Sequence record: MH675927.1
DNA: 64,000 nucleotides
Source of the DNA: Escherichia phage vB_vPM_PD114
Direction: 5' to 3' (one strand)
The notes under the pieces are model-generated. The model had not been told where the DNA came from, ran no database searches, and worked only from the letters and a program-made list of their open reading frames with translations. Shown here piece by piece: positions 12,175 to 52,578 of the stretch. Position 1 is the stretch's first letter, and each line of letters begins with the position of its first letter. Position numbers and translations under genes: made by a program.

Positions 12175-12254
12175 ATGACTTTACTAGAGAGTATCGTAGT
12201 GTTAATCATCTTTATCATTGTTGTCATAGGATATTTTACAGAAGACTAAAATAA

Positions 12255-12284
12255 AGCCCCTAGAAGCGATTCTAGGGGCTTTTG
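12255..12284 (+). terminator. rho-independent terminator ending the + strand early block
   Basis: gcccctaga-agcgat-tctaggggc hairpin then TTTTG. Confidence 0.6.
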
Positions 12285-12349: not shown

Positions 12350-12607
12350 TTAGGAATGCATAAAATCTTCTTCAGGGCAGGTTGAGAGATAAGAGATGCA
12401 CGTTGGGACAACAACAACATTATCTTTAAGGTTTTCAACCAAGCCTTTTGTGATTCCAGCCACTGCCCCGTTAATATCTGCTTGACGGATACCAAAACCT
12501 TGTTGTGCGGATAGATAACAAAATCCCTCACCTTTCTGTTGATTGTTATTGAAGTAATAAACGTAGTGCATCATAAAATGGTCTTTAACGATTTGTTCTG
12601 TGGTCAT
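12350..12607 (-). CDS. hypothetical protein
   Basis: track ORF; SD aggag upstream. Confidence 0.5.
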   Translation of the reverse strand: MTTEQIVKDHFMMHYVYYFNNNQQKGEGFCYLSAQQGFGIRQADINGAVAGITKGLVENLKDNVVVVPTCISYLSTCPEEDFMHS

Positions 12608-12618
12608 AATATTCTCCT

Positions 12619-12644
12619 ATAAGAAAAGGGGCTTTCGCCCCCTT
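12619..12644 (-). terminator. rho-independent terminator downstream of SIR2-like gene
   Basis: ggggc/gcccc hairpin followed by T-run on the - strand. Confidence 0.45.
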
Positions 12645-12651
12645 GGTTAAG

Positions 12652-13464
12652 TTATTTAGTCAAATGATCTTCTATCATTTTTATGAAAGCAGGATTGCTA
12701 AAAGCATCTGCGGCCTTTTCTCGATAAACAAAGACTCCTCTATCTTCGTAAAGAAGAGTTTCTTCGTAATTAATTCCTGGGTTAACAACAATCATTTTTG
12801 TACCCATACTAAGTGCAGGGAATAATTCCCAATTAAAATTGATAACTTGGTTTGAACATCCCACTACAACAACCAAATCTTGCATGGTCAAAGTATCAAA
12901 AATATGATACATATCCGTGTAAAGTGGAGCAGCTTCCCCAAAGAAAATTACATTAGGTTTTACATAATGGTAGTCATCTACATCTATAGCTTGATAACCA
13001 ACATCTTTTACAATTGTAGGTTGTCCAGCTTTTCTTTGAAAAGTAATTTCAGGAAGAAAACCGTGCACATGTAGCACTTCTTCCCTATCTACTCCTGCTC
13101 GTTCAAGGAGGTCATCCACGTTAGTAGTAATGTTAATAATTCGTTCTGGGCCATATTTTTTGAACCATTCTCCAATCTGAAGATGTGCTGGATTCGGGTC
13201 AACTTTCTCTAATTCCACGCGACGTTTATTGTAAAAGTCGTGAGTTTTACGGTAGAGGTTATATCCTTCTGCATCTAAACCACCCATAGCATCAAGAACA
13301 CCTTGTTCTTGCTGATAACCGTCACGGAAGTTGAAAATGTCACAGACCTCAAAAAGATCATAAGAAGACCATAACGCCTTCCCTGAAGAAGTATCTGTTC
13401 TAAAAGCTGAGATACCGCTATCCACAGATAGTCCTGCACCACTGACAAAAATTACTCTTCGCAT
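12652..13464 (-). CDS. SIR2-like (sirtuin fold) NAD-binding protein
   Basis: GAGLSVDSGISAFR glycine-rich NAD loop near N-terminus, VHG and VIFFGE motifs as in sirtuins; no Zn-ribbon Cys pairs; SD aagagga. Confidence 0.6.
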   Translation of the reverse strand: MRRVIFVSGAGLSVDSGISAFRTDTSSGKALWSSYDLFEVCDIFNFRDGYQQEQGVLDAMGGLDAEGYNLYRKTHDFYNKRRVELEKVDPNPAHLQIGEWFKKYGPERIINITTNVDDLLERAGVDREEVLHVHGFLPEITFQRKAGQPTIVKDVGYQAIDVDDYHYVKPNVIFFGEAAPLYTDMYHIFDTLTMQDLVVVVGCSNQVINFNWELFPALSMGTKMIVVNPGINYEETLLYEDRGVFVYREKAADAFSNPAFIKMIEDHLTK

Positions 13465-13475
13465 TCAATATCCTC

Positions 13476-14006
13476 TTAGTAATCATCATCCCAAGAAGAT
13501 GCGTCGTAACGCTCTTCCTCTTCGAAATCCCAATTAATTTCTACTCCAAAATCTAAAAACAATTTAACAATGTTTTCTGTAGAGTAGTATTTATCATAAG
13601 CGTTAGCTAGTTCCCAATACTTGTCACTCAATTTTTTATAATTAGGATCATTATAATCATGAGCTACTTTATCACCATAATCATACATCTCTTGTTCAGC
13701 TTTAAGCATAGCTTCTGGTGTAAGAAGATTAGGGAACGGACGATTTCTTTCTTTTAACTTAAAAGCAATCCAGTTTGCAACATTCGCCACTTCACCATCT
13801 CGATTATCACCTAAACAACTTGCATAATCTCCATCTTCGTAAGTGCCTAAATCCCCACTGACTTCATGTACAATAGATGAATACGATCCACACGTTTCAC
13901 AATCTGAAAAAGTGTCTACTGTTGTAATATCAATAGATAAAACTGGTAAAGCCATAGCTTCTTTCACACAAGCCTCCTCATATAATAACATATCATCAAA
14001 ACCCAT
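13476..14006 (-). CDS. hypothetical acidic protein
   Basis: track ORF trimmed to ATG after ggagg; very acidic C-terminus. Confidence 0.5.
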   Translation of the reverse strand: MGFDDMLLYEEACVKEAMALPVLSIDITTVDTFSDCETCGSYSSIVHEVSGDLGTYEDGDYASCLGDNRDGEVANVANWIAFKLKERNRPFPNLLTPEAMLKAEQEMYDYGDKVAHDYNDPNYKKLSDKYWELANAYDKYYSTENIVKLFLDFGVEINWDFEEEERYDASSWDDDY

Positions 14007-14017
14007 ATATCCTCCAG

Positions 14018-14043
14018 ACAAATAAAGCCCCTGGTTGGGGGCT
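14018..14043 (-). terminator. hairpin with T-rich tail
   Basis: agcccc/ggggct stem, T-rich downstream on - strand. Confidence 0.35.
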
Positions 14044-14061
14044 TTGGTTAAGTTTTACGGA

Positions 14062-14673
14062 TTATACCAGACTTTTAAGGTAGTTGTCAAGGGCTTCTTG
14101 ATCACCTTGACAAACATAGCAACGGAAATCTTGAGCAGAAGGTTCTTTGTCCTCCTCCCAATCCCAATAGACAGTACCTTTATAGCGTGAGCCTGGGAAC
14201 TCGAAGTATGCTACATGGGTAATATGGTGTGGGCCACCCCAAAACTCTGTAAAAGTAAATTGAGGATACGCTGCTTTAACTGTATTTTCAAACCAAGTTT
14301 TACGATCTAATGCTTCGTTTATAAAATAAGCATGGCGTTCCATTTCATCCCAATCTTTCCAAACGCATTTTTCATCCAGAGAAAAAACAAAATTTTCACT
14401 GTTAAAATCGTCTGTATCTGATTCCAAAATATCATAATCATGTGCGCTAGGTATCCACCATCCAGCTTCTAATAGTGCTTTCGCAGGTACAAAACCTTTT
14501 TCAGCGTATTGATCAAATTCTTTTACTCTACGTACAGTGCAGTATTCATCTTCACCACCAATGTCCAGTAGACAAGCGCCTTTGCGTCTTGCTGCAAGAC
14601 CATGTGTATCAAAAACTACAACACTACCTTCACCATCTTCACGATCTACTTGATATGCAACTTTTTGAGTCAT
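14062..14673 (-). CDS. hypothetical protein (Trp/acidic-rich)
   Basis: track ORF. Confidence 0.5.
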   Translation of the reverse strand: MTQKVAYQVDREDGEGSVVVFDTHGLAARRKGACLLDIGGEDEYCTVRRVKEFDQYAEKGFVPAKALLEAGWWIPSAHDYDILESDTDDFNSENFVFSLDEKCVWKDWDEMERHAYFINEALDRKTWFENTVKAAYPQFTFTEFWGGPHHITHVAYFEFPGSRYKGTVYWDWEEDKEPSAQDFRCYVCQGDQEALDNYLKSLV

Positions 14674-14796: not shown

Positions 14797-15786
14797 TCAT
14801 TCCTCCATACACTTAAGAATATGTGCAATGACAGGTATAGTCCAACCATTACCTAACATCTTATATGCTTGTGTGTTACTACTCACTTTAAAGTAATCAT
14901 CTGGAACACCTTGTAAGCGGCAACACTCTTTAACCGTTAACTTTCTATAATGCACACCTTCACTCAATTTTTCAAAGGCATCCAGATATCTTCCAGGTGG
15001 AATGTAAGCTAACAGTACGTCTTTAGGCACAGTCGTGAGGCAACGAGTTTTTTCACTGTCCTGAACTTCCAAGCAATGTACCAAACGATCAGCTTTAGAT
15101 GTACTACGTTTGCCATTTTCATTAATTCTACGCCCATATATTGCTGCCGGATAAAAAGCTAGTTGTCTGCGGCTCTTTTCAAAATACTGTTCTATATTAC
15201 CACCTTTGGCATAATTTGCATCTATGCAATAAGCCTTATCCCTGTCTACAATACTATCATCTTCAATGATATCTTGCAACACTTCATTGGTAATATCCCA
15301 AGGTTTTATTTCCCAATTGCACCAGTATAAACGTTGTCTATTCTGTGCAGTGAAATCTGCGGAGTTAATGAATACGGGATCAACACCTAAGTAACTTGTG
15401 ATCACGTTTTCCCACTCCACCTTCATCTTAACGTTTTCAAGCATGAACTTAACATTAGGGTTAAACTTTTTAATATGTTCAAGAATTTCAACATATTCAA
15501 AGAACAGTTTAGATCGCGGATCTTGAAAGTTCAAACCCTTACCAGAAGAAGAGAAGCCTTGGCACGGGCTACCGCCTAACAAAATATCAATTTCTCCCCA
15601 CGGGATATCCCATTCTCTCCATTTTGTAACATCACCTAATTGAATAATATCTGGAAAATTGGCTTGGCTTTCAGCTATGGCAAATTTGTCCAATTCTGAG
15701 GCATAATACTTATCTACTTCAATACCTGCACTTTTTAGTGCAAGCATTCCTCCTGACATACCATCAAAAAGACTTAAAACTTTCAT
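14797..15786 (-). CDS. DNA cytosine-5 methyltransferase
   Basis: motif I FDGMSGG, motif IV GGSPCQGFS, motif VI ENV in canonical order. Confidence 0.8.
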   Translation of the reverse strand: MKVLSLFDGMSGGMLALKSAGIEVDKYYASELDKFAIAESQANFPDIIQLGDVTKWREWDIPWGEIDILLGGSPCQGFSSSGKGLNFQDPRSKLFFEYVEILEHIKKFNPNVKFMLENVKMKVEWENVITSYLGVDPVFINSADFTAQNRQRLYWCNWEIKPWDITNEVLQDIIEDDSIVDRDKAYCIDANYAKGGNIEQYFEKSRRQLAFYPAAIYGRRINENGKRSTSKADRLVHCLEVQDSEKTRCLTTVPKDVLLAYIPPGRYLDAFEKLSEGVHYRKLTVKECCRLQGVPDDYFKVSSNTQAYKMLGNGWTIPVIAHILKCMEE

Positions 15787-16254: not shown

Positions 16255-16277
16255 CAAAAAACCCGCCGAAGCGGGTT
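16252..16277 (-). terminator. rho-independent terminator
   Basis: aacccgcCGAAgcgggtt hairpin with T-run on - strand. Confidence 0.55.
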
Positions 16278-16281
16278 TATA

Positions 16282-17629: not shown

Positions 17630-17938
17630 TTAACAAGTAATACTGGGAGTAACAATTGGATTAATAGGATACGTATACCAAGGGCTTCCAATTTCCCAAG
17701 GGTTATAAGGTGTACGAGGATCAAATGGAGGCGTTACTTGAGGCTTTTTCCAAATCTCCGCTAGTTGTTTCTTCCATTTATCCCTTGCTGTATCGTTATC
17801 TTCATCCAACTGTTCGTCATTATCTTTTATTTCTGATTTTGGAAATAAAAGCTCTTTGACTAACTCAACGTCTTCCGTTTCAATAGTAGTTTCTTTCGTA
17901 ATATTCCCTACCGTCTCTTTAATTGTGACTTTATACAT
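17630..17938 (-). CDS. hypothetical protein
   Basis: track ORF; SD agaggagg. Confidence 0.55.
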   Translation of the reverse strand: MYKVTIKETVGNITKETTIETEDVELVKELLFPKSEIKDNDEQLDEDNDTARDKWKKQLAEIWKKPQVTPPFDPRTPYNPWEIGSPWYTYPINPIVTPSITC

Positions 17939-18684
17939 TAGTCCTCCTCTAAAGTAGAATAAAATTGTAACGTATTTGAATCATCAAAATATGCAAAGGT
18001 TAAATTACCATTGAACACAGACCCAGTATCCATATATACCCTATTACTGCTAATTACAGGTTTAGGAACATAAGAATGCCCGTGAAATACATAATCTACT
18101 CCTGAAACTCTAGGAAGAAGAATCCCTTCAAGTGCGCAATCTATCATATCACGATCCCACATTAAAGATTCTGTGAATCGAGAAACTTGCTCTTTATCCA
18201 TATTCAAACAAAATGGCAAAACTTCTGTCACTGGTAAATGTTCCAAAACTGAAGGATATCCACCGTGAATAAAGCCTAGTTTCATATTACGATAATTGAC
18301 AACAAGTACAACAGGTAAGTCTTCTAGCATCAAAGCAAGAGCAGTTGCACCTTCTTCTCCACACTCGTTTAGAACTGTATGGCCTCCGTTCTGAAACCAA
18401 CATTCGTAATATCGCCTATCACCTTCTAGCAACCCTTTAATCATCATATCTTCGTGATTTCCACGAATAGCATAGCGATTTAGTTTTCTGGTGAATTCAA
18501 CGGTACAACGAAAATTCTGCTTGCCGCGATCTGTAAGATCTCCTAAAGATACAACAACATCTTGATCTCGGATACCTAAAGTATTAACACCTTTCTGGTA
18601 TAAATCAAAGCAACCATGTAAATCACCAATAATAAACAGGTCTTGATCATCTTTTACACTAATTTCTTGATATACTAGCATCAA
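17938..18684 (-). CDS. Ser/Thr protein phosphatase (PPP, calcineurin-like)
   Basis: GDLHG, GDLTDRG and RGNHE metal-binding motifs in canonical order. Confidence 0.8.
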   Translation of the reverse strand: MMLVYQEISVKDDQDLFIIGDLHGCFDLYQKGVNTLGIRDQDVVVSLGDLTDRGKQNFRCTVEFTRKLNRYAIRGNHEDMMIKGLLEGDRRYYECWFQNGGHTVLNECGEEGATALALMLEDLPVVLVVNYRNMKLGFIHGGYPSVLEHLPVTEVLPFCLNMDKEQVSRFTESLMWDRDMIDCALEGILLPRVSGVDYVFHGHSYVPKPVISSNRVYMDTGSVFNGNLTFAYFDDSNTLQFYSTLEED

Positions 18685-19814: not shown

Positions 19815-20477
19815 TTATTTAATATTCAATTTTGCACAAAGACGTTGTACCGCTTTGGCATCGAACAAACTCCCACGAATAGTTCTCTTTCCTGATTCAT
19901 TCAGATGCTTTGCAATCGTCATATATGGCGTTTTACAAGCTCTGTATGCAACTAAAGAATCTTTTAAAGAAAGCGCAAACTCTTTTGAGCGTTTTGCTTC
20001 TTCCGTTTTCGTATAATCTGTTCTTTTGTATTTAGGGTTTGCTGCACCAAGAAGCGTTCCCTTCGCTTTTGCTACCTTAAGGCTCTTCTTAACACGATCA
20101 GATATTGCACGAGCCTCTTCTTCTGCCAGAACTGCTAAAATATTTATTATCATATTTTCAGCGGAGGGCATAGTTGCTATCCGTACATTAATCATCTCTA
20201 ACAAGGTTGCAACAGAAGCTGTGTTACGTCCAAGACGGTCAACCTTAGCAACAACAAGTGTAGCACCTGTTTCTTTGCAAAGATTAACAGCTTTTACAAG
20301 CTCTCTACGTTGCTTCCAATCGCCTTTACCAGAATAAAACTCTGCAAAGCTACCTACAATAGTATAGTTTTCTTGTGAATCCAGGAAGCGTTGGATATCT
20401 GCTTCCTGTGATTCTATACCATACTGGTTGCCTTGTTGTTTCTTCTTAGAAAGTCGATGATACAGTACAAACTTCAT
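19815..20477 (-). CDS. serine recombinase (resolvase/invertase family)
   Basis: N-terminal YHRLSKKKQ with candidate catalytic Ser, VVAKVDRLGR motif, C-terminal helix-turn-helix-like region. Confidence 0.7.
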   Translation of the reverse strand: MKFVLYHRLSKKKQQGNQYGIESQEADIQRFLDSQENYTIVGSFAEFYSGKGDWKQRRELVKAVNLCKETGATLVVAKVDRLGRNTASVATLLEMINVRIATMPSAENMIINILAVLAEEEARAISDRVKKSLKVAKAKGTLLGAANPKYKRTDYTKTEEAKRSKEFALSLKDSLVAYRACKTPYMTIAKHLNESGKRTIRGSLFDAKAVQRLCAKLNIK

Positions 20478-40944: not shown

Positions 40945-41667
40945 TTAAGCAATGATTGCTGCGATATTAGGTTTAACAAAGGTAGATGGCTTCATAATTT
41001 TACCTTTGTCATCAAAGAATACGTATACCTTTTGAACTTCGTTATATACAGCATGTACTCCAGTATAAGAACCTTCTGCACGATCTTTGCTTCGCATCTC
41101 GATAGCATCACACTCTTTTTCAAGAGCTTCAACAATATCCTTAGTTTCCCAAATAGCCAGGAGTTGCTTCTTGGTAGGATACTTGGACTCATTGCTATTC
41201 AACACTTCACGCATAACCTTCTTCTCGTTATAAACAGAACGCACCAAAGTATCTCGTGCCATACGTGTAAGTGTAAGAGACATTAGGGCAAATTGCAAGT
41301 CATTTTCTACCATTTTATCAAATTCAATGATAACATCGTAAATGTTTTCTGCCAGAACATCTCCTGTCGGCATTTCCAGGGCTTTATCAACACCTTCTTT
41401 ACCAAAGAACATAAATGCCAGGTAGGATGCTACCACAAAAATATCTGCTGCTGCATCAAGTAATTCAACGTGATCATTTTCCTGTGCTGCTGCTTGGAAC
41501 TCTTTTAGTTCTTCTCGTACAAAAGAAAGTTGAGCTTCAAACATCTCTTGAGTAAATTCTGGGGTTACGCCACCACGTGCCTTAGCATTCCAAGCAACAA
41601 TTTGATCGGCAGCTTTGATAAAGAAGCTATTGTCCACTTTTACTTGTTTGAAAAAATTCTCGATCAT
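40945..41667 (-). CDS. hypothetical protein (possible nucleotide pyrophosphohydrolase)
   Basis: track ORF; SD aaggagaa; function is a weak guess from helical EEL..E..DA composition. Confidence 0.5.
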   Translation of the reverse strand: MIENFFKQVKVDNSFFIKAADQIVAWNAKARGGVTPEFTQEMFEAQLSFVREELKEFQAAAQENDHVELLDAAADIFVVASYLAFMFFGKEGVDKALEMPTGDVLAENIYDVIIEFDKMVENDLQFALMSLTLTRMARDTLVRSVYNEKKVMREVLNSNESKYPTKKQLLAIWETKDIVEALEKECDAIEMRSKDRAEGSYTGVHAVYNEVQKVYVFFDDKGKIMKPSTFVKPNIAAIIA

Positions 41668-41865: not shown

Positions 41866-42981
41866 TTACTCTGCTGGTTCCCAAGTACCTGGAATCATCT
41901 TACGTACACGTACCCCAACAGGCTTGGTAGGAATACCTTCGTCTGAAAATTCTTCGTACTCAATTTCAACAAATTGACCAATAAGTGTCAAAGCATTTTC
42001 TTCTTTACGATAGTTAATGGTTTCATCTGAATCCTTACGCATCAGGAATTCGACTACTTTACCATTTTCCATCTCGCCTGTCAATACCCCGTCACCATTT
42101 TTATCACGCTTTGCACTTACCACCTTAACTTCAAGCGTCTGCCGTGGTTTACGTTTAATAACATCATAAGAACGTTTATCAAACTCGTAAACACCTTGTG
42201 CATTACGATACACCACACCTTCCGCTTTCTCACGCAGAGCTTTTGCATAGAATTCATCAAACTGCTCTTGGTTTTCAATGTACTCTGTATGTACTACACA
42301 AATAAGTTCGTCTAAACCTTTATCTTGAACAACTTCTTTTAGAGCAGCCAAAACTTCAACCCTCTTCTCAAATGGTACAGATGGCACAGGAACATCATAT
42401 ACATAGTATTTAAGAAGCGGAGTGTTAGCATTATGCTTTTTCCACGCACTATTAATTTGTTGAAGGCTAAGAACACCCAAACCAGCAAAAACTTCACCGT
42501 CAAGAGGATGACCAACTACTTCTTTAATGAAGGTTGGAATTTCTTTCCAGTGAGGTGGAAGTTTATATACTTCCCCAGCTTTAGATAAGCATTCACCTTG
42601 CATGTTAATCATTGAACGTAGACCATTCAATTTATACTGTGCATAACCTGGAAACAAAACACGATCAGCATAATCTTTATAATCCTGACATTTCATGGGT
42701 GTGGAAGGAACATGGTTTTCAGCTTCCTCTTTTGTTTTATAATACCCATTCTTAAGTTGCTTTGTCCATTTGGCAAGAGCTTCTATTTCAGCTTGTTCTT
42801 CTGCTGTTGTTTCATTTGAGCGACCAATATTTTTAGGTTCTGCTGTATAAGATTTGCTAGTAATCTTTCCACCTAATTGACCATGAGTAACAGTTACAAC
42901 ACTACCTTCGGTATAGACTGACCACTGTTTAATTTTACCTGTAGAAGTTTTACCATACAATGTAGGATTAGTTTGTTTCAT
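41866..42981 (-). CDS. ATP-dependent DNA ligase (nucleotidyltransferase superfamily)
   Basis: motif I YKLNG (KxDG-type lysine), size about 370 aa; track ORF trimmed to ATG after tggagg. Confidence 0.6.
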   Translation of the reverse strand: MKQTNPTLYGKTSTGKIKQWSVYTEGSVVTVTHGQLGGKITSKSYTAEPKNIGRSNETTAEEQAEIEALAKWTKQLKNGYYKTKEEAENHVPSTPMKCQDYKDYADRVLFPGYAQYKLNGLRSMINMQGECLSKAGEVYKLPPHWKEIPTFIKEVVGHPLDGEVFAGLGVLSLQQINSAWKKHNANTPLLKYYVYDVPVPSVPFEKRVEVLAALKEVVQDKGLDELICVVHTEYIENQEQFDEFYAKALREKAEGVVYRNAQGVYEFDKRSYDVIKRKPRQTLEVKVVSAKRDKNGDGVLTGEMENGKVVEFLMRKDSDETINYRKEENALTLIGQFVEIEYEEFSDEGIPTKPVGVRVRKMIPGTWEPAE

Positions 42982-43156
42982 CTTTAACCTCCAGTTGCGA
43001 AAGAACCCATTTAGCCATTTCAATTTCACCGTGTAGTCTGCCTAGTTCATAGGCATCATCAATATTACCACCAGTGTAATCATCCACCATAAAGTAAGGA
43101 TCTTCGCTACTGTTAGGTGCGTTTGCAATTCTCGTTAGTTCTTCAATAAATGTCAT
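42968..43156 (-). CDS. hypothetical protein
   Basis: track ORF trimmed to ATG. Confidence 0.45.
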   Translation of the reverse strand: MTFIEELTRIANAPNSSEDPYFMVDDYTGGNIDDAYELGRLHGEIEMAKWVLSQLEVKDETN

Positions 43157-43392: not shown

Positions 43393-43713
43393 TTAATCCT
43401 TAAGACGTTCATTTAAATCTGCAATAACATCACCTAAATCTTCACATTCCAGTGTTAACTCTGAAACTTGTTCATTCAAACAAGAAACTTCTTCGTTTAG
43501 ATCTGAAATAATGTTTTCTAATGAATCTACTTGGTCATCATATGAACGTTTTGTTTCTTCAAGTTCTTCCGTAAGATCATTAATCAAACGGAGCAAAGAT
43601 AAGATATAGCCGTCTCCTGTCTCGTTCCTCCACTCACTTCCGTAGCGATAAATAATAATTTCACCATTATCGACTACTGTAAAATACTTACCTTCACCAG
43701 AATAAATTTCCAT
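43393..43713 (-). CDS. hypothetical coiled-coil protein
   Basis: track ORF; SD aaggagag. Confidence 0.55.
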   Translation of the reverse strand: MEIYSGEGKYFTVVDNGEIIIYRYGSEWRNETGDGYILSLLRLINDLTEELEETKRSYDDQVDSLENIISDLNEEVSCLNEQVSELTLECEDLGDVIADLNERLKD

Positions 43714-43722
43714 ACACTCTCC

Positions 43723-44127
43723 TTATTGTAGCTTAAGTGAACTGCGAAGACGTTTCTCTTGCTGATCACGAATATGTTGTGGAACCTCATGAATTGAGTC
43801 GTTACCGTGCCTATTTTCAACAACTAAAGAGATAACTTGATAACCAAACTCTTCAGCAAGAGTAAAATAAGGTTTAAGTTCTTTCTCTGTGGTTGAAGTG
43901 TTAGAGACAATAATCTTTTTAATATTAGATGCCATAGCATCACGAACAATACTCTGACACCATGCGTGTGCTTTACCTACATTTTCTGGCTTCCAATCGT
44001 AAACACCACTTTCTGTGTAATGATATTGATCTGCCTCACAGATAGGCCAATAACCTTCAGAAATAATTTCTGCTACTGTAGATTTACCTGCACCTGAAAC
44101 ACCACGTAAAATGATAAGTTGTTTCAT
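43723..44127 (-). CDS. P-loop polynucleotide kinase-like protein
   Basis: N-terminus MKQLIILRGVSGAGKST resembles T4 Pnk kinase domain start; SD tggagg. Confidence 0.6.
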   Translation of the reverse strand: MKQLIILRGVSGAGKSTVAEIISEGYWPICEADQYHYTESGVYDWKPENVGKAHAWCQSIVRDAMASNIKKIIVSNTSTTEKELKPYFTLAEEFGYQVISLVVENRHGNDSIHEVPQHIRDQQEKRLRSSLKLQ

Positions 44128-45060
44128 TTAGCCTCCAAAGAAGTTTTCTATTTCTTTACGTCGCTCTTGTGGATCTAAAGCAGCCCATTGAGTCTTGGTA
44201 AAGTTGTTTCGAAGCCATTCTAGCAAAGTATAATATTCTTCGTCAACAATTTGTTTAGCATTTTTTGGGTTGTCCCAAATCATATCCCACTTCTTATTGC
44301 CACCACGCATAAGGAATTTCTTAGCAAGATAGTATGGTGACTTAATCTTTAACAGCAAGTTAAACGGATAGTTTGTTTCACGAACTACAAACCCTTCGTG
44401 CTTACATTGTTTAGACATTTCAACAACATCTGAAAATTTAATCATCTGATAAACTTCAGGACGTTTAAATTTTGTAACAGATGCAATCCCATCGAGCACA
44501 CCTTCAGGTAGCATGAAACTTGTCCCATCATCATTTTGAATTCTTGCTCCGATTAAGTATGCACCTGGTTCTTCTTCAACAATATGTGGATCAGAAGGAT
44601 CACAGATTTCAAAAAGGAAAGTTGCTTTTGCACTTTCTGTCCACTTAATGAAATATTCTATGTCATCACACTCGGAAACAATATGGTTCTTGGCAAGAGT
44701 TGCAAAATCTGACTCTAGGCTCCCTGTTGTTGATACAATAAGTTGCCCTTTGTACACACCTACAGATGCCATAAAACCGTTTACTTTACGGACAGCATCT
44801 ACAAGTTGGTCTGCTGGAAGATCTGTACCATTCTCAAAACGATTAAAGATTTTAGTAAAAGGCCAAATAACAACATTGTCTTCTGAGTCAACAACCAACC
44901 CACGACAATCTAGAAGTCGTTTGTCAACGTTCCACAAGTTATCCCAGAATACATTGTTTTTGTATTTAAGTACAGCAAGACCAGCATACTCTCCAGATTT
45001 AACTTCTTTTTTATGCACTAAACCTTTTGCAATCAGGTCATCACAATTGAACTTAGCCAC
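44128..45060 (-). CDS. RNA ligase (Rnl1-like nucleotidyltransferase)
   Basis: motif I KVNGFMASV followed by Gly-rich segment as in T4 Rnl1; GTG start after aaggag. Confidence 0.55.
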   Translation of the reverse strand: MAKFNCDDLIAKGLVHKKEVKSGEYAGLAVLKYKNNVFWDNLWNVDKRLLDCRGLVVDSEDNVVIWPFTKIFNRFENGTDLPADQLVDAVRKVNGFMASVGVYKGQLIVSTTGSLESDFATLAKNHIVSECDDIEYFIKWTESAKATFLFEICDPSDPHIVEEEPGAYLIGARIQNDDGTSFMLPEGVLDGIASVTKFKRPEVYQMIKFSDVVEMSKQCKHEGFVVRETNYPFNLLLKIKSPYYLAKKFLMRGGNKKWDMIWDNPKNAKQIVDEEYYTLLEWLRNNFTKTQWAALDPQERRKEIENFFGG

Positions 45061-45061: not shown

Positions 45062-45613
45062 TTAATCTCCTTTGATTATCTTATGATGGTCTACAACAAC
45101 AATATCACGCTTATCCATAATAGAGATGATTTCGTCAAAATGCAAGATTTTTCCGTGTGCGTCCCAACCAACGTCCAACATTTTCCCATACAAATGATCA
45201 GGGAATGATCCGTGAGAGTGCCCGTGTAGCATGATTGATCCATGCCCTTGTTTATTCCAGGAAGCCATAGGGTAATGACTTAAGACGAAGAACAGTTTCT
45301 GATATTTCACTTCGTCATAATACACCACCTCGCCATATTCTGCAAGCACTTCTCGGTGTTTGCTGTAATCATGGTTCCCAACACAGTAAGTGATATCACC
45401 TTGAAGACGTGAAGCAATTTTACGGGTATCTTCTTCAGTCCCGAAACAGAAGTCGCCCAAGTGCCACATCTTGACACCAGGACTCGTAGCACATTTATTC
45501 CATGCTTCAATCAGTGCTTCTGTCATATGATCCATATCTTCCCACGGGCGATATTCAGGAGCAAACTCTCGAATACGTTTGTGCATAAAATGCAAATCAC
45601 TTGTAATAAACAT
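45062..45613 (-). CDS. calcineurin-like metallophosphoesterase
   Basis: DLHF, GDFCFG and GNHD metal-binding motifs. Confidence 0.7.
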   Translation of the reverse strand: MFITSDLHFMHKRIREFAPEYRPWEDMDHMTEALIEAWNKCATSPGVKMWHLGDFCFGTEEDTRKIASRLQGDITYCVGNHDYSKHREVLAEYGEVVYYDEVKYQKLFFVLSHYPMASWNKQGHGSIMLHGHSHGSFPDHLYGKMLDVGWDAHGKILHFDEIISIMDKRDIVVVDHHKIIKGD

Positions 45614-46130: not shown

Positions 46131-46472
46131 TTAATAGTTAACACGTTTAATTTCAACACCATAGGATGAAATAAAATTTTCCTTAGCTAACATATATTTA
46201 CCGGCAGCAGAAGGATTTGATGTATGAACATAGATAGTTTTAAGAGCATCCCATTCACCAGCGTACAACATACATTCTACGTCTAAGAACGCATGATATC
46301 CTTCTTGATCTTCTCCAAGATCATTATCGAAGTGTATCTCTGAGATATTATTGAAATTATCTTCATCTGAAACAAAAGATAACCAATCCTCAAAAGATTT
46401 TAACCAAATGGCATCCTCATAACCATAATCTTTAGGATCTCTTAAATCGTCTAACCAAAGAATTTTAGCCAC
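46131..46472 (-). CDS. hypothetical protein
   Basis: track ORF 46131..46505 trimmed to GTG after aggaagggg. Confidence 0.5.
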   Translation of the reverse strand: MAKILWLDDLRDPKDYGYEDAIWLKSFEDWLSFVSDEDNFNNISEIHFDNDLGEDQEGYHAFLDVECMLYAGEWDALKTIYVHTSNPSAAGKYMLAKENFISSYGVEIKRVNY

Positions 46473-46474
46473 TA

Positions 46475-46666
46475 TCAACCCCCTTCCTGTTTCTCTTCTT
46501 TCCAAGTTTTACCATTATCTACCAACTTCTTAGAAACAGCAAATCTTTCTCCATTGATATAAAACAAATAAAGAATAAAGGATTTTCCTATAGTTACAGT
46601 ATCTACTACTTTTACACGCTTCACACCTTGCATGTATTTGGCTTTACCTGAATAAATAAGGAACAT
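46475..46666 (-). CDS. hypothetical protein
   Basis: track ORF; SD aaggaata. Confidence 0.5.
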   Translation of the reverse strand: MFLIYSGKAKYMQGVKRVKVVDTVTIGKSFILYLFYINGERFAVSKKLVDNGKTWKEEKQEGG

Positions 46667-48506: not shown

Positions 48507-49400
48507 ATGAAAGTTAGTATTCTGCATGGTGTTGACTGTTATGTTACTGATGTAGACGTTAAAGTGTTTACATTCTCTGGTGGAGAACAACATGTTCAAT
48601 TAGATACGAATCTATCAGGTTTCAATCATGCTACAGACAGAATCTTACTCACTTTAGAAGTAAGATCTGCTAAAGACTTGATGACTTTGGTTATGACTAA
48701 GAATGCATTGGACAATATGCTATATCATAAACCATATTGTGTTGATTTACTCATGTTGTATGTGCCGTATGCACGACAAGACAGAGTGTGTGAGCCTGGG
48801 GAAGCATTCGGAGTTAAAGCATTTGCTTCTATAATTAATTCATTAAATTTCTCACGTGTTATCGTTGCTGATCCGCATAGTGATGTTACTCCAGCAGTGT
48901 TTGACAGACTCTGTGTAATACCTCAAGAGGAGATTGCTTACGAAACTTTAAAGTGGAAGTTACGTATGGAGAATTTTGCTCTTGTTAGCCCTGATGGTGG
49001 TGCTCTTAAGAAAATATTTAAATTATCTAAGAAAATGTCTTTAGATGTGTTCTGTGCAGAGAAGGTTAGAGATACCGCAACAGGTGCTATTGTTCGTACA
49101 GACATTTCTGTACAGGATTTCAATAAGCGTAACCTGATGATCGTAGATGATATCTGTGATGGTGGTAGAACTTTTATTGAATTGGCTAAAGTGCTACGTG
49201 CTCGTAACGCAGGTAAGATTGAGTTATATGTTACACACGGTATCTTCTCTAAAGGTCTTAAAGAGTTGAGTGAACACTTTGACTGCATTCATTCTCTTAA
49301 TGTGTGGGAAGATAACATCCAAGAAGATTCCGGTGTTCTTGTTAAGAATCAGTCAGATTTGCAACAACAAATTGTATCTCCATACGTGTGGAATTTTTAA
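48507..49400 (+). CDS. ribose-phosphate pyrophosphokinase-like enzyme (Prs homolog; Adps-type candidate)
   Basis: YARQDR motif and PRPP-binding loop LMIVDDICDGGRT; SD taaggagataaaga. Confidence 0.75.
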   Translation: MKVSILHGVDCYVTDVDVKVFTFSGGEQHVQLDTNLSGFNHATDRILLTLEVRSAKDLMTLVMTKNALDNMLYHKPYCVDLLMLYVPYARQDRVCEPGEAFGVKAFASIINSLNFSRVIVADPHSDVTPAVFDRLCVIPQEEIAYETLKWKLRMENFALVSPDGGALKKIFKLSKKMSLDVFCAEKVRDTATGAIVRTDISVQDFNKRNLMIVDDICDGGRTFIELAKVLRARNAGKIELYVTHGIFSKGLKELSEHFDCIHSLNVWEDNIQEDSGVLVKNQSDLQQQIVSPYVWNF

Positions 49401-49471: not shown

Positions 49472-51205
49472 ATGAATATTTTTGCACCTTTTGCTACTGA
49501 TTGGTACAAACCTGGTCACAAGCAGATGTACAATCAAAATACAAAACTCATTTTCTCTAATTTAACTCCTCGTAATGATAAAAACTTTGCACACTATGCA
49601 GATCGTGAAGCACGTGGTGTGATTGTTTTAGGTATTCGTCGAGCAGTCACTGATGCTCTTGTAACTATGTGGGATAGCTTCTTTAAAATGTCTCGTAGTG
49701 CAGCAGTAAATAAATTTTATCGTATGTCTAAAAATGCATTAGGTGCTTCTGCTCCTTCTGCTGAATGTTGGGGAGAATTGCACGATTTAGGTTATCTTCC
49801 GCTGGAAGTTCGATCTCTGCCAGAAGGTGTTTTGTGTCCTATTGGTGTTCCTGTGTTTACTGTGCATAATACTTTAGAAAAATTCTTTTGGTTAACTAAC
49901 TATGTGGAAACACTGTTGTCAGATGAAACTTGGAAGACAATGACTAATGCCACAGCAGCTTTTCAGTATAAGCGTATCGCTATGGCATATGCGATGGCAA
50001 CGTGTGATAATATTGATCACGTTAACTTCCAGTGTCATGACTTTAGCCTACGTGGTTTAAGTAATATCGAAGATGGTTATAAGAGTGGTATCGCTCACTT
50101 GGCATCGTTCACAGGAACAGATAATATTCTGGCTATTGAAACTGTGCATGACTATTATGGTATTGATTATGATCAGTTTGTTGCAGGTTCTATTCCGGCA
50201 ACAGAACATTCAGTAGCAACGACTAACATTGGAGCTATTGTTGAAGATCTGAAGAAACATTTCCCACATCTTAAAGATGATGTAGATGGGCTTCGTTATG
50301 TAGCAGAAAAAGAGTTTCTTCGTCGTTATATCGAAGAAATTGTTCCAGAAGGTTTTTGTTCATATGTAGCAGACTCTTATGACTATTGGGCTGTATTGAC
50401 TCGCATTCTGGTAGAATTGAAAGATTCCATTATGTCACGAAATGGTCGTCTTGTTATTCGTCCAGATTCAGGAGATCCGGTTAAAGTTGTTGCAGGATAC
50501 AATGTTGAATCTTTTGATAACTATGAAGACCTCTTAAATAATGGTATTGCGACAGCCACTGAAGTAGTTCATTTGGCTGATGTTAATAAGTATTACAATG
50601 TTCTTCAGGATTGCAGTGTTGCTGACTGTATTGATGAAACTTATGAGATTCCTTATTGTGAAGCAGTAGGTTCTATTCAAATCCTTTGGGAAGTGTTTGG
50701 TGGTACTATCAACCGAAAAGGCTACAAGGTTCTTGATCAGCATATCGGTATGATTTATGGTGATTCTATTACTGTTGAACGAGAACACGAGATCTTACGC
50801 CGACTGAAGAAGAAAGGTTTTGCAGCTTCCAATATTGTATTTGGTGTTGGTAGTTATACTTATCAGTTCAATACACGAGATACTTTTGGTTTTGCTGTTA
50901 AAGCAACAGGTAGTATTATCGGTGAACACGAAATTTTGGTAAGTAAGGAGCCTAAAACTGATCCTGGTAAACGCTCTGCAAAAGGTTTTATTAAGGTTGT
51001 TAAGGATACCAATGGTAATCTGTCTCTTGTAGATAATCTTTCTTTTAAAGATATCCAGGATGAAGACAATGAGTTACAAGTTATCTTCAAGGATGGTAAG
51101 GTTATTACACCACAAGTAGAAGGCCGTGATGAAACATTCACTGATATCCGCAACCGTGTTGACGTAGAGGTTCTTCGTACTATGGGAACCATCCAGGTTG
51201 ACTAA
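49472..51205 (+). CDS. nicotinamide phosphoribosyltransferase family enzyme (Nampt homolog; Namat-type candidate)
   Basis: Nampt-family blocks HDFSLRG, LVIRPDSGDP, GMIYGDSIT, KTDPGKRSAKG; 577 aa with N-terminal extension. Confidence 0.8.
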   Translation: MNIFAPFATDWYKPGHKQMYNQNTKLIFSNLTPRNDKNFAHYADREARGVIVLGIRRAVTDALVTMWDSFFKMSRSAAVNKFYRMSKNALGASAPSAECWGELHDLGYLPLEVRSLPEGVLCPIGVPVFTVHNTLEKFFWLTNYVETLLSDETWKTMTNATAAFQYKRIAMAYAMATCDNIDHVNFQCHDFSLRGLSNIEDGYKSGIAHLASFTGTDNILAIETVHDYYGIDYDQFVAGSIPATEHSVATTNIGAIVEDLKKHFPHLKDDVDGLRYVAEKEFLRRYIEEIVPEGFCSYVADSYDYWAVLTRILVELKDSIMSRNGRLVIRPDSGDPVKVVAGYNVESFDNYEDLLNNGIATATEVVHLADVNKYYNVLQDCSVADCIDETYEIPYCEAVGSIQILWEVFGGTINRKGYKVLDQHIGMIYGDSITVEREHEILRRLKKKGFAASNIVFGVGSYTYQFNTRDTFGFAVKATGSIIGEHEILVSKEPKTDPGKRSAKGFIKVVKDTNGNLSLVDNLSFKDIQDEDNELQVIFKDGKVITPQVEGRDETFTDIRNRVDVEVLRTMGTIQVD

Positions 51206-51952: not shown

Positions 51953-52028
51953 GGTTCCATAGCTCACTGACGAGAGCGCACACCTCATAAGTGTCGAGGG
52001 CAGGGATTGTAACCCTGGGGAACCACCA
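51953..52028 (+). tRNA. tRNA with CAT anticodon (Met or Ile-lysidine), atypical T-loop
   Basis: acceptor GGTTCC/GGAACC, D-arm GCTC-actgacga-GAGC, anticodon loop CTCATAA, 3' ACCA; T-loop ATTGTAA non-canonical, 7:66 mismatch. Confidence 0.45.
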
Positions 52029-52059
52029 TTTAAAAGGAGATGCTATGCATCTCCTATAT

Positions 52060-52145
52060 GCAAGTGTGGTGGAATTGGTGATACACATTGTGCTTAAAAC
52101 GCAACGCTTAAATGATTGAGGGTTCGAATCCCTCCACTTGCACCA
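52060..52145 (+). tRNA. tRNA-Leu (TAA)
   Basis: 7-bp acceptor GCAAGTG/CACTTGC, anticodon loop CTTAAAA, long variable arm, T-arm GAGGGTTCGAATCCCTC, encoded CCA. Confidence 0.7.
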
Positions 52146-52147
52146 AC

Positions 52148-52253
52148 GCCTAGTAGGGTATTTGGTAATTCCGAGGCCATCAAAGCCTGAAAAATATGTT
52201 AGACCGCTTTGTCTAACTAAATACGAAATATGGTTCGATTCCATAACTAGGCT
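52148..52253 (+). ncRNA. atypical 106-nt tRNA-like RNA (possible TCA anticodon hairpin, long extra arm)
   Basis: perfect 7-bp acceptor GCCTAGT/ACTAGGC and canonical T-arm TATGGTTCGATTCCATA but about 30 nt too long; 7-bp extra hairpin gttagac-cgcttt-gtctaac; fold not computed. Confidence 0.3.
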
Positions 52254-52285
52254 TCAATTTAAATAATAATTTTAGTAAAAATATC

Positions 52286-52314
52286 TTGACATTCACTTAG
52301 TTTTTTGTTATAGT
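52286..52314 (+). promoter_or_regulatory. sigma70-like promoter (TTGACA-N17-TATAGT)
   Basis: about 12 nt upstream of tRNA-like gene at 52326. Confidence 0.5.
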
Positions 52315-52325
52315 TACTGTGAAAA

Positions 52326-52407
52326 CGGGGTGTATCTCACCTGACTTCTAATCAGGCGTTAACCGAGTAATTGGAGTATGCAGGTTCGAATCCTGTCACC
52401 CCGACCA
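52326..52407 (+). ncRNA. atypical tRNA-like RNA with TCT (Arg-type) anticodon hairpin, no canonical D-arm
   Basis: 7/7 acceptor CGGGGTG/CACCCCG, T-arm GCAGGTTCGAATCCTGT, ACCA end; anticodon-like hairpin cctga-CTTCTAA-tcagg begins at position 15. Confidence 0.35.
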
Positions 52408-52425
52408 AAAAGTTTTAAAAACTAC

Positions 52426-52454
52426 TTGACAAGCAAGATAGTTTTATGTTAGAT
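52426..52454 (+). promoter_or_regulatory. sigma70-like promoter (TTGACA-N17-TTAGAT)
   Basis: upstream of tRNA-Ser at 52471. Confidence 0.5.
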
Positions 52455-52470
52455 TTAAAGTATGATAACG

Positions 52471-52560
52471 GGAAGGTAGGGCGCAGCGGTGCGCAACCAG
52501 GTTTGAACCCTGGCCCATTGTAGCGATACGGTGATGGTTCGACTCCATTATCTTCCTCCA
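52471..52560 (+). tRNA. tRNA-Ser (TGA)
   Basis: acceptor GGAAGGT/ATCTTCC (one GU), D-stem GCGC, anticodon stem CCAGG/CCTGG loop TTTGAAC, long variable arm, T-arm, CCA; anchored to ORF track at 52531. Confidence 0.65.
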
Positions 52561-52578
52561 AATTCAACTAGGAGCTTT

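Follow-up and report, generated by a model that had tools for sequence, protein, structure and literature searches.

A phage-encoded sirtuin without a zinc ribbon in a phi92-like coliphage, and its possible role in RNA-end repair

What does a sirtuin do for the phage that encodes it, and do the acidic proteins encoded beside it belong to the same system? We addressed these questions for a locus in a 64-kb stretch of DNA (the window), which is the left part of a phi92-like coliphage genome (Justusliebigvirus). The initial annotation of this locus described a SIR2-like protein that heads a small group of genes bracketed by hairpins, with two acidic partner proteins and an 85-aa ORF, and suggested manipulation of NAD+ by the phage.

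All four ORFs are present on the minus strand, where they are transcribed in the order acidic 203-aa protein (14062-14673; phi92 gp041 homolog, PHROG 8514), acidic 176-aa protein (13476-14006; phi92 gp039 homolog, PHROG 9509), 270-aa sirtuin (12652-13464; phi92 gp038 homolog, PHROG 2162) and 85-aa ORF (12350-12607; phi92 gp037 homolog, PHROG 15991), the last in the unit. These are real genes, each matching its PHROG at E<=1e-52 and being kept in more than 100 phage genomes. The sirtuin gene (sir2) is third in transcription order and does not head the group, nor do hairpins bracket the four genes: a strong bidirectional intrinsic terminator with a 13-bp stem lies downstream (12253-12282), closing both the minus strand unit gp039-sir2-gp037 and the converging plus strand genes, and the other hairpins are internal. 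One of these, a short G+C hairpin on the minus strand between the sirtuin stop and the start of the 85-aa ORF (12626-12644), is possibly an attenuating terminator or an RNA-stabilising element. Another, terminator-like and located between gp041 and gp039 (14024-14045, minus strand), is kept in Phapecoctavirus with compensatory changes in the stem. It is preceded by a perfect sigma70-type promoter match (TTGACA-18-TATAAT with TG; 14090-14061, minus strand), a match to consensus only, which lies inside coding sequence and overlaps the last gp041 codons. This predicted promoter is likely to be the start of the gp039-sir2-gp037 transcript. The sirtuin lies in a small early-type unit made up of the promoter match, gp039, sir2, gp037 and the downstream terminator, and gp041 is part of the upstream (methyltransferase) unit; the next terminator upstream is found at 16259-16278, past the C5-methyltransferase. 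Terminator-like sites are over-represented in the region (9, versus 2.5 +/- 1.3 in shuffles).

The sequence identifies ORF 12652-13464 as a genuine Sir2-family protein with intact catalytic motifs and without a zinc ribbon. A Pfam SIR2 profile search returned PF02146 (E=2.4e-19, 70.4 bits versus a cut-off of 24), the match spanning residues 9-207 of the protein and positions 1-178 of the 180 in the model, and no other Pfam family was found at E<=0.1 in this single-domain protein, which matches PHROG 2162 at E=7e-99. The motifs on which the SIR2 assignment had been based are all in place: GAGLSVDSGISAFR at residues 9-22, VHG at 133-135 and VIFFGE at 172-177. Conserved residues comprise GAGxS (9-13), F21 and R22, Y78-x-x-R81, N115 and D117 and the catalytic H134, followed in the C-terminal part by FGE (175-177) and GCS (202-204). 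Across 14 clade members G9, A10, G11, S13, F21, R22, N115, D117, H134, G135, F175, G176 and E177 are invariant; Y78 and R81, which align with FYNARR of CobB, are also invariant in the clade. The absence of zinc-ribbon cysteines had been noticed correctly, as the only cysteines in the protein are C41 and C203, with none between the catalytic His and FGE. No Cys4 zinc ribbon was found in any of the 14 clade members (0-1 Cys between HG and FGE), and the cysteine-poor segment of the phage sirtuins aligns to the CobB stretch bearing C...CxCC. A Cys4 zinc ribbon is typical of the Sir2 family and is not demanded by the Pfam model. Matches in the PDB were to canonical sirtuins only (CobB, Sir2Af, Sir2Tm and SIRT5/3/2), and we consider the sequence evidence for the predicted sirtuin fold decisive. 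The phage clade is acidic throughout, with pI values of 4.65-6.26. Comparison with phage ZCKP1 gave dN/dS values of 0.11 for the sirtuin, 0.10 for gp041 and 0.44 for gp039, indicating that the sirtuin is under purifying selection.

PHROG 2162 is a phage-specific clade related to CobB/class III sirtuins. Of 50,697 phage records, 984 contain a member, about 1 in 50 (about 2%), and the carriers include T5, rV5-like, phi92-like and jumbo phages. The sirtuin studied here shares 98.5% identity with a protein of phage muut annotated as "Sir2" (JR322_gp165), 73% with the phi92 protein, 53% with that of T5 ('cobb') and 48-49% with rV5-like proteins, among them that of EmilHeitz (49% identity, E=7e-85). 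The sirtuin is already known: GenBank entries for nearly identical copies name it Sir2, and Iyer et al. 2022 describe a 'distinct clade of viral sirtuins' with a predicted role (PMC9503650). Literature searches found no experimental work, biochemical or genetic, on any member of the clade. The gene is chimeric, with residues 1-190 of Phapecoctavirus type and residues 191-270 of phi92 type, a pattern indicating that the sirtuin has been swapped between phage genera by recombination; its locus is a hot spot for such exchange. The related phage EP57 has no sirtuin at the syntenic site, and the sirtuin is therefore dispensable.

The neighbours of the sirtuin are indeed acidic, gp039 having a pI of 4.05 and a net charge of -26 and gp041 a pI of 4.58 and a net charge of -19. 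The gp039 start codon (ATG at 14006) is served by a GGAGGA ribosome-binding site, and the protein has invariant cysteines arranged as C36-x-x-C39 ... C64 within a fold that is predicted to combine a beta-sheet with a helical bundle and is without a characterised relative. gp041 has two alpha+beta domains, with a cystatin/NTF2-like fold in its C-terminal half. Fold comparison gave no function for gp039 or gp041, and no Pfam or NCBIfam domain was found in the neighbours of the sirtuin. A DNA-mimic or anti-restriction role for acidic proteins encoded next to a C5-methyltransferase was considered.

That the two acidic proteins are partners of the sirtuin is not borne out by their distribution across phages: the sirtuin occurs in 984 records, versus 136 for gp039 and 153 for gp041. 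An exhaustive HMMER search with gp039 gave 11 matches among 1.84 billion representatives, so narrow a family that it is unfit for context analysis. gp041 is found, in addition, in groups of Pseudomonas, Xanthomonas and Vibrio phages that are absent from the matches of the sirtuin search. The 85-aa ORF is found in 126 phage records, from Stephanstirmvirinae only. These three genes are lineage-specific (about 130-150 Stephanstirmvirinae genomes) and are not required partners. We consider it improbable that the sirtuin and the acidic proteins act together as a module, in which, for example, gp039 with its Cys-x-x-Cys...Cys arrangement could be a regulator, inhibitor or targeting factor of the sirtuin or give it a zinc module in trans. 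The order gp041-gp039-sir2-gp037 is kept in both Stephanstirmvirinae genera and in phi92 and ZCKP1 the gp039 stop codon either overlaps with the start of the sirtuin gene or directly adjoins it, but an HNH gene parts gp039 from sir2 in muut, and the conserved terminator and promoter detach gp041 from the unit. Loss of the sirtuin in EP57 is accompanied by a truncated gp039, as a module would lead one to expect; on the other hand, recombination replaced the N-terminal two thirds of the sirtuin studied here (residues 1-190), leaving only 62% identity in that part, whereas gp039 kept 97% identity. Proteins related to gp039 in fold were seen only in sirtuin-holding groups (Phapecoctavirus, BF-like jumbo and RaK2/121Q-like jumbo phages), yet the gp039-like gene of Serratia phage BF has no annotated sirtuin within 7 kb on each side, and about 850 sirtuin-bearing phage genomes are without gp039 and gp041. 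Homologs of gp041 lie among replication genes in Vibrio/Pseudomonas phages, and the 8 kb around them contain no annotated sirtuin.

In the rV5-like phage EmilHeitz an RNA ligase, a cREC (cyclic-phosphate processing receiver domain; PF20274, E=9e-14) and the sirtuin follow one another, with a polynucleotide kinase (PNK) and a phosphoesterase adjoining, and in rV5-like phages the cREC gene is directly upstream of the sirtuin. The T5 sirtuin adjoins a HAD_SAK_2 gene (PF18143, E=4e-20), and in a 608-kb megaphage, whose sirtuin is 33% identical, a Rnl1 RNA ligase is encoded two genes upstream. Among 22 sirtuin lineages in a sample from IMG/VR, six are of rV5 type, with a PNK and mostly an RNA ligase or cREC beside the sirtuin, and 3-4 are of T5 type with a HAD_SAK_2-like gene; a calcineurin phosphoesterase and an RNA ligase were each found once in the others. 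These three distinct contexts (rV5-like, T5 and megaphage) appear to tie the sirtuin clade to RNA-end processing.

The window itself encodes an RNA-repair set on the minus strand at 43.7-46.5 kb. It comprises a P-loop polynucleotide-kinase-like protein (AAA_33; 43723-44127), a T4 Rnl1-type RNA ligase (PF09511; 44128-45060), a calcineurin-like phosphoesterase (45062-45613) and a cREC (PF20274, E=3e-14; 46131-46505). ORF 43393-43713, annotated 'hol-like chemotaxis' in relatives, was rejected as the cREC, the true one being that at 46131-46505. At 134 aa the PNK is kinase-only, and healing of 2',3' ends is therefore left to other proteins. A MazG-like pyrophosphohydrolase (40945-41667) and an ATP-dependent DNA ligase (41866-43029) are also encoded on the minus strand, and their homologs flank the sirtuin in rV5-like phages. 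The sirtuin gene, at 12.7-13.5 kb, is ~27-31 kb from the RNA-repair genes, and no RNA ligase, cREC, kinase, phosphoesterase or HAD_SAK gene is adjacent to it, such neighbours being met in relatives. The window has homologs of all members of the rV5-type module at 29-48% identity (49% for the sirtuin), and its PNK-like protein is 43% identical to one beside the rV5-type sirtuin module. This fits inheritance of the whole set with displacement of only the sirtuin, by about 27 kb. The phage carries 15 tRNA genes.

An NAD+ salvage pair elsewhere in the window had been read as a sign of deliberate NAD+ manipulation. The pair consists of an Adps-like PRPP-synthetase homolog (48507-49400, plus strand) and a Namat-like NAMPT homolog (49472-51205, plus strand), which match Bas63 gene 79 (36% identity, E=3e-43) and gene 80 (39% identity, E=4e-136), respectively, in the same gene order. 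Bas63 genes 79-80 are Adps and Namat; together they constitute NARP1, which experiments have shown to counter host defence by making NAD+ anew from ADP-ribose and nicotinamide. Judged by this homology, the pair is to be read as NARP1 and would restore NAD+ against host defence. A NARP2-like salvage pathway was rejected, as no NMNAT is annotated beside the pair and the homology points to NARP1. ADP-ribose and nicotinamide are also the leftovers of NAD+ cleavage by a sirtuin.

We propose, with a probability of about 0.4, that the sirtuin is the NAD+-consuming step in phage RNA-end repair. It would use one NAD+ per substrate molecule and would not be a free NADase. The likeliest substrate would be a 2'-phosphate that remains where an RNA break has been healed or ligated, with tRNAs cut by host anticodon nucleases as the target of repair and the cREC, the calcineurin-like phosphoesterase, the kinase-only PNK and the Rnl1-type ligase as partners. 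In chemistry parallel to that of Tpt1/KptA, a phosphate oxygen held by a Tyr78/Arg81 anion site would attack C1'' of NAD+ and nicotinamide would leave; the NARP1 pair at 48.5-51.2 kb would keep NAD+ available. An RNA-repair role was predicted independently by Iyer et al. 2022 (PMC9503650, section 3.7.3). The general form of the proposal, that zinc-less phage sirtuins are not deacylases but RNA 2'-phosphotransferases or nucleic-acid-end ADP-ribosyl transferases replacing Tpt1/KptA in tRNA repair against anticodon nucleases, with NARP1 recycling nicotinamide and ADP-ribose, is one we put forward with more reserve. Genes for nucleic-acid enzymes are crowded together in the early regions of phages, so that their being neighbours says less in a phage than it would in a bacterium. 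The clade is acidic, and most of its invariant basic residues recur in the CobB alignment, so no new RNA-binding surface is evident, and all residues needed for ordinary lysine deacylation are kept. The closest cellular relatives, from Marinobacterium, are encoded amid metabolic and not RNA-repair genes; since these sirtuins are also Cys-less, zinc loss alone is no sign of a new substrate, and their context lowers support for the RNA-repair explanation.

Deacylase or ADP-ribosyl-transfer activity of the phage sirtuin is plausible. A close rival to RNA-end repair, and itself a tentative possibility, is that the protein is a CobB/SIRT5-type protein lysine deacylase, probably preferring acidic acyl groups (succinyl, malonyl). 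During infection such an enzyme would deacylate proteins of the host or the phage, with metabolic enzymes, RNA polymerase and the catalytic lysines in the RNA/DNA ligases of the phage itself as possible targets, and would consume NAD+ and release nicotinamide and O-acyl-ADP-ribose. CobB and SIRT5 are the best sequence relatives, and the catalytic His, the Asn/Asp pair, the FGE substrate-staple and the class III Y-x-x-R, a motif that binds the acidic acyl group in SIRT5/CobB, are all invariant. However, the protein falls far under the cut-offs of the CobB-type NCBIfam equivalogs (NF040867, NF001752-5), the best being NF001753 with 90 bits versus 243 and NF040867 giving 74.6 bits versus 320. The Cys-less Marinobacterium cousins (35-41% identity) are chromosomal and lie amid metabolic genes, as for a housekeeping deacylase, and an acidic pI is unremarkable in a protein-modifying enzyme; but the repeated, independent linkage of the clade to RNA ligase, cREC, PNK and HAD_SAK is unexplained by deacylation unless these are its targets, and the zinc module, which in canonical sirtuins helps to form the peptide cleft, is without its ligands.

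An ADP-ribosyltransferase marking a host or competitor protein, DNA or RNA, like SirTM or the HerA-linked DNA-targeting sirtuins, is in our judgement unlikely. The NAD+ site is intact and some sirtuins are dedicated ADP-ribosyltransferases (PMC4518038; PMC9503650), but the phage protein has HG and not QG, no macrodomain gene is adjacent and no HerA-type partner is present. A free NADase lowering host NAD+ for host shut-off or superinfection exclusion, as defence SIR2 domains do, is very unlikely, since the phage invests in restoring NAD+ through the NARP1 of the same genome. Sirtuin-fold proteins can be NADases in defence systems, and the zinc module is absent from the phage sirtuin as it is from defence SIR2 domains. 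Yet a PADLOC scan of all four proteins gave no match to its defence models at E<=0.01, and with PF02146 the only Pfam family and canonical sirtuins the only PDB matches, the link to defence-type NADases drawn in the initial annotation falls away. The catalytic His and substrate motifs of deacylating sirtuins are kept, and there is no fused sensor or regulatory domain.

The gene itself adds nothing new, the clade having been described and its role predicted in 2022; among the corrections for this window, the acidic neighbours are not to be read as parts of a sirtuin system. About a thousand sequenced phages, the model phage T5 included, carry this sirtuin. To our knowledge, 2'-phosphotransferase activity has never been shown for any sirtuin. 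If RNA-end repair by an RNA 2'-phosphotransferase is the true role, it would widen sirtuin chemistry, demonstrate for the first time that a canonical HG-type sirtuin can act on a nucleic acid and add a new phage counter-defence step against tRNA-cleaving immunity. If the protein is a deacylase, phages would be shown to edit the host acyl-proteome.

Of the proteins with solved structures, E. coli CobB and human SIRT5 (PDB 1S5P, 2B4Y) come nearest to the phage sirtuin (E=2e-13 when its sequence is used alone, 4e-24 when the clade profile is used), with CobB the closest. They have GAGxS, FR, Y-x-x-R, N-x-D, HG and FGE in common, whereas the phage sirtuin is without the four zinc cysteines, although the length of the segment is kept, and has a 20-residue insert at residues 50-70. 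The Marinobacterium chromosomal sirtuins, the closest cellular relatives found, have TTNVDDLxERAG, KPNVVFFGE and the lack of Cys between HG and FGE in common with the phage proteins, and are encoded next to genes for 2-oxoacid:ferredoxin oxidoreductase, amino-acid dehydrogenase and transporters. The RNA 2'-phosphotransferase Tpt1/KptA is a proposed functional analogy only, with an unrelated fold and no sequence similarity; both enzymes would depend on NAD+, with an oxyanion attacking C1'', nicotinamide leaving and 1'',2''-cyclic ADP-ribose as the product (PMC11417386; PMC9503650). The defence SIR2 NADases (ThsA, DSR1/2, SIR2-HerA, SIR2-pAgo) belong to the same broad NAD+-binding Rossmann superfamily, but the phage sirtuin differs from these and from AVAST in having no fused or adjacent sensor (SLOG, HerA, pAgo or a long C-terminal domain) and in coming from a lytic phage with NARP1 in its own genome. 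Class M sirtuins have the sirtuin fold and possible ADP-ribosyl transfer in common with it; SirTM has QG in place of HG, a retained zinc domain and a linked macrodomain gene (PMC4518038), and identity with SirTM was rejected because HG is present (H134 invariant) and no macrodomain was detected in the flanking ORFs; the phage protein is also without zinc ligands. The other phage sirtuins of the clade have the same length, the same invariant catalytic residues and the same absence of zinc-ribbon cysteines; the gene of this lineage lies away from the RNA-repair genes, and the present copy is a recombinant of the alleles of two genera.

The segment 12300-14900 of the window has 96-98% DNA identity to Salmonella phage UAB_1 and to Escherichia phages muut, cardinal and phi92, all phi92-like coliphages (Justusliebigvirus, Stephanstirmvirinae). 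Because these matches sit at the equivalent genome position, the window is the left ~64 kb of a phi92-like phage. Its early block is on the - strand, from ~47.7 kb down to 12.3 kb, and upstream of the sirtuin cluster encodes a C5 cytosine DNA methyltransferase (14797-15786, - strand; PF00145, E=2e-43), a second calcineurin-like phosphoesterase annotated as NinI-like in relatives (17938-18684, - strand; PF00149, E=7e-14) and a resolvase/invertase (19815-20477, - strand; PF00239, E=8e-22). Several records labelled 'Campylobacter phage' (MG065639, MG065645, MG065656, MG065689 and others; host Campylobacter jejuni) are ~97% identical to phi92-like coliphages over the regions compared, and their host label looks doubtful.

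The ORF at 12652-13464 (- strand) encodes a member of the Sir2 family, as the initial annotation had proposed; membership was established by a Pfam profile search (PF02146, E=2.4e-19; score 70.4 bits, cut-off 24), and the protein matches PHROG 2162 'Sir2' with E=7e-99. The sirtuin motifs described for it are present and the zinc-ribbon cysteines are absent: there are two cysteines in total, none of them in the small-domain segment. The closest solved structure by sequence is E. coli CobB (1S5P; E=2e-13, or E=4e-24 with a phage-clade profile), followed by archaeal Sir2Af, Sir2Tm, SIRT5, SIRT3 and SIRT2. Only CobB-type deacylase models were matched in NCBIfam, far under their curated cut-offs (90 versus 243 bits). 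The suggested link to defence-system SIR2 proteins proved wrong, since no defence SIR2 occurs among the solved structures matched by sequence and a PADLOC scan of all four proteins of the cluster gave zero matches. Alignment of 14 clade members having 55-99% identity to the window sirtuin establishes an intact NAD+/catalytic site, with invariant GAGxS, F21 R22, Y78-x-x-R81, N115, D117, H134-G135, F175-G176-E177, G202-C-S204 and N228. The segment between HG and FGE has the same length as the CobB zinc module and contains zero or one cysteine in each member, so the loss of zinc ligands is established as a trait of the whole clade. Relative to the orthologs of Phapecoctavirus ZCKP1, dN/dS is 0.11 for the sirtuin, which establishes purifying selection, 0.10 for gp041 and 0.44 for gp039, which is evolving fast. 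Identity with SirTM was considered and excluded, as SirTM carries QG where the phage protein has HG, retains its zinc domain and has a macrodomain gene linked to it (PMC4518038).

All four ORFs of the cluster are genuine conserved genes lying precisely where they had been placed, but the sirtuin is third rather than first: transcription on the - strand runs through gp041 (14062-14673), gp039 (13476-14006), the sirtuin and finally the 85-aa ORF gp037 (12350-12607). Nor do hairpins bracket the four genes. A strong bidirectional terminator (12253-12282) lies downstream of the group, and the other two hairpins are internal, one separating the sirtuin from the 85-aa ORF (12626-12644) and one between gp041 and gp039 (14024-14045). 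Within the final codons of gp041 is a sigma70 consensus, TTGACA-18-TATAAT (14090-14061, - strand), matching at 12/12 positions and having an extended -10 TG; the TATAAT includes the gp041 stop codon (TAA), and the 14024-14045 hairpin comes straight after. This promoter-like site and hairpin are kept in phi92, muut, ZCKP1 and EP57, with compensatory changes in the hairpin stem; the Phapecoctavirus copies have TATAGT as the second hexamer and a better T-run. Given this conservation, the transcription unit is likely promoter, gp039, sir2, gp037 and terminator, with gp041 belonging to an upstream unit that also holds the C5 DNA methyltransferase and gp044.

The window sirtuin gene is a chimera (12652-13470) produced by inter-genus recombination. 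Over residues 1-190 the protein shares 94% identity with the Phapecoctavirus 'nepoznato' type and 62% with phi92; over residues 191-270 it is of phi92 type (99% identity), and the flanks of the gene are ~98% identical to phi92. Synonymous sites are saturated over the N-terminal stretch, where pS is 0.75 as against 0.02 over the C-terminal one. Exactly between gp039 and sir2, muut carries an inserted gene of 246 aa that matches HNH_3 weakly (E=1e-4, slightly under the Pfam cut-off; locus L002, 4157-4897). The insertion coincides with the upstream recombination breakpoint, which suggests that the allele exchange is linked to a homing endonuclease. In EP57, a reduced Phapecoctavirus of 130 kb (locus L008, 3003-4198), gp041, gp037 and a gp039 truncated to residues 77-155 are present and no sirtuin was found between gp039 and gp037 in the 8-kb locus examined. 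The sirtuin thus appears to be dispensable, with possible concurrent decay of gp039.

The two acidic neighbours are indeed acidic, gp039 having a pI of 4.05 (net charge -26) and gp041 one of 4.58 (net charge -19), but their proposed role as sirtuin partners was not borne out. A functional module of the sirtuin with gp039 and gp041, which would not exclude other readings, could draw on the four-gene order common to both genera, the abutting or overlapping of gp039 and sir2 in phi92 and ZCKP1, the joint loss and truncation in EP57, and the confinement of gp039-fold relatives to phage groups that also bear sirtuins. We nevertheless consider it unlikely. The 85-aa ORF, gp039 and gp041 occur in 126, 136 and 153 phage records respectively, essentially all Stephanstirmvirinae, compared with 984 for the sirtuin, which leaves ~850 sirtuin-bearing genomes without any of these neighbours. 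A gp039-like gene of Serratia phage BF has no annotated sirtuin within 7 kb on either side, and the gp041 homologs of Vibrio phage MAR and of Pseudomonas Ab18/PAKlein3-like phages are flanked by replication genes, the 8 kb around them including no annotated sirtuin. The HNH-like gene of muut splits gp039 from sir2. Finally, gp039 has stayed 97% identical to phi92 despite replacement of the N-terminal two thirds of the sirtuin, making a tight physical partnership with that part of the sirtuin unlikely.

Just 11 relatives of gp039 turned up when 1.84 billion representatives were scanned exhaustively with HMMER. In its predicted structure (pLDDT 87) a long beta-hairpin sheet lies against a helical bundle, with an acidic tail and an invariant C36-x-x-C39...C64 motif that is possibly a small metal site; the fold matched nothing meaningful in the PDB and only uncharacterised phage proteins in BFVD. 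The window copy is without the final eight residues (EEDIECEE) borne by its closest homologs, and ends approximately where identity to phi92 collapses.

In relatives, the sirtuin recurs in an RNA-repair context, published earlier and derived afresh here. The rV5-like phage EmilHeitz has the order RNA ligase, cREC (PF20274, E=9e-14), sirtuin, MazG-like, two small ORFs and DNA ligase, with PNK and phosphoesterase genes transcribed divergently, and T5 has a HAD_SAK_2 phosphatase gene (PF18143, E=4e-20) next after the sirtuin. A scan of IMG/VR gave 54 sirtuin loci, which reduce to 22 lineages at 85% identity. Six of the 22 are rV5-type, with PNK, mostly RNA ligase or cREC, and usually DNA ligase; four are T5-type, three of these with a HAD_SAK_2-like gene; and six are phi92-type, all with gp041 and three also with gp039. 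The others are single lineages: in one, the sirtuin is accompanied by genes for a calcineurin phosphoesterase, a Toprim protein and a DNA ligase; one, a 608-kb megaphage, encodes an Rnl1 RNA ligase two genes upstream of a sirtuin with just 33% identity; one has a DNA ligase and a gene family common to rV5-type loci; one has a DNA ligase two genes downstream; one has an adjoining nucleoside deoxyribosyltransferase-like gene; and in one a solute-binding protein gene is the lone annotated neighbour. On the megaphage contig (L063, 3582-6708) the genes run from the Rnl1-type ligase through an arginase-family gene (PF00491, E=9e-76) and a 109-aa ORF to the distant sirtuin; an arginase-family enzyme is unexpected beside an RNA ligase and a sirtuin. 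On a 279-kb jumbo phage contig (L062, 6001-7198) the gene right after the sirtuin is nucleoside 2-deoxyribosyltransferase-like (PF15891, E=1e-33), a further nucleotide/NAD-processing domain.

The window itself holds homologs of all members of the rV5-type module, at 29-48% identity to EmilHeitz (sirtuin, 49%): a MazG-like gene (40945-41667), DNA ligase (41866-43029), PNK-like kinase (43723-44127), Rnl1 ligase (44128-45060), phosphoesterase (45062-45613) and cREC (46131-46505). The simplest reading is a shared ancestral gene set from which only the sirtuin was relocated, by ~27 kb.

We favor, with a probability of about 0.4, the model of Iyer et al. in which the sirtuin removes 2'-phosphate from RNA, a substrate that we infer. 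Cleavage of tRNA by a host nuclease would leave a 2',3'-cyclic phosphate; cREC and the phosphoesterase would process the cut end, the kinase-only PNK would phosphorylate the 5'-OH and Rnl1 would close the break. The sirtuin would then use NAD+ to clear the leftover 2'-phosphate through ADP-ribosyl transfer; the phosphate would sit in the invariant Tyr78/Arg81 anion site and the 2''-OH would be activated by His134, parallel to the Tpt1 reaction, which is outlined in PMC11417386 as having two steps. The main competitor, a possibility we hold tentatively, is a CobB/SIRT5-like deacylase. Several observations count against 2'-phosphate removal and for deacylation: the clade is uniformly acidic (pI 4.65-6.26) with no new basic surface evident, adjacency is weaker evidence in phage early regions, and the nearest cellular relatives, Cys-less chromosomal sirtuins found across the genus Marinobacterium (35-41% identity; e.g. 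locus L072, 5001-5594), sit amid metabolic genes (2-oxoacid:ferredoxin oxidoreductase, amino-acid dehydrogenase, SNF transporter or MetE). A deacylase could even account for the RNA-repair context if, speculatively, the catalytic lysines of the ligases were its targets. Action as an ADP-ribosyltransferase appears improbable, and action as a free NADase, the depleting activity known from defence SIR2 domains, very improbable.

The supposed NAD+ salvage pair elsewhere in the window is likewise not what it had seemed. The adjacent PRPP-synthetase-like (48507-49400, + strand) and NAMPT-like (49472-51205, + strand) genes, labelled ribose-phosphate pyrophosphokinase and nicotinamide phosphoribosyltransferase in GenBank relatives, are homologs of Adps (Bas63 gene 79; 36% identity, E=3e-43) and Namat (Bas63 gene 80; 39% identity, E=4e-136), in the same order as in Bas63. 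Osterman et al. showed that the Bas63-type pair is NARP1 rather than PRPP/NMN salvage: Adps pyrophosphorylates ADP-ribose, and Namat couples the product with nicotinamide to give NAD+, overcoming the NAD+-depleting defences SIR2-HerA, DSR2 and type I Thoeris. In their survey Namat adjoins 97% of Adps-clade genes. This homology to a counter-defence system argues that the phage guards NAD+ rather than depleting it, and the pair could recycle sirtuin products as a side benefit. Directly downstream are 15 tRNA genes (51953-55253, + strand), including Lys-UUU, Tyr, Asn, Gln, Thr and two Met.

With tblastn, the sirtuin is detected in 984 of 50,697 phage records, among them T5 and T5-like Demerecviridae, rV5-like Vequintavirinae, phi92/phAPEC8-like Stephanstirmvirinae, and jumbo phages such as 121Q, Erwinia/Serratia BF-like phages and Vibrio phages. 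The gene and clade are already known: phi92 (gp038), muut, PHB05 and numerous other phages have it annotated as Sir2, and the T5 record as 'cobb: putative transferase'. We found no experimental study of any phage-clade sirtuin in the literature, and the function of a protein that T5 and, overall, ~2% of sequenced phages carry is the sole aspect meriting follow-up. Iyer et al. 2022 (PMC9503650) described three neighbourhood types for viral sirtuins and predicted for them a KptA-like role in RNA 2'-phosphate removal.
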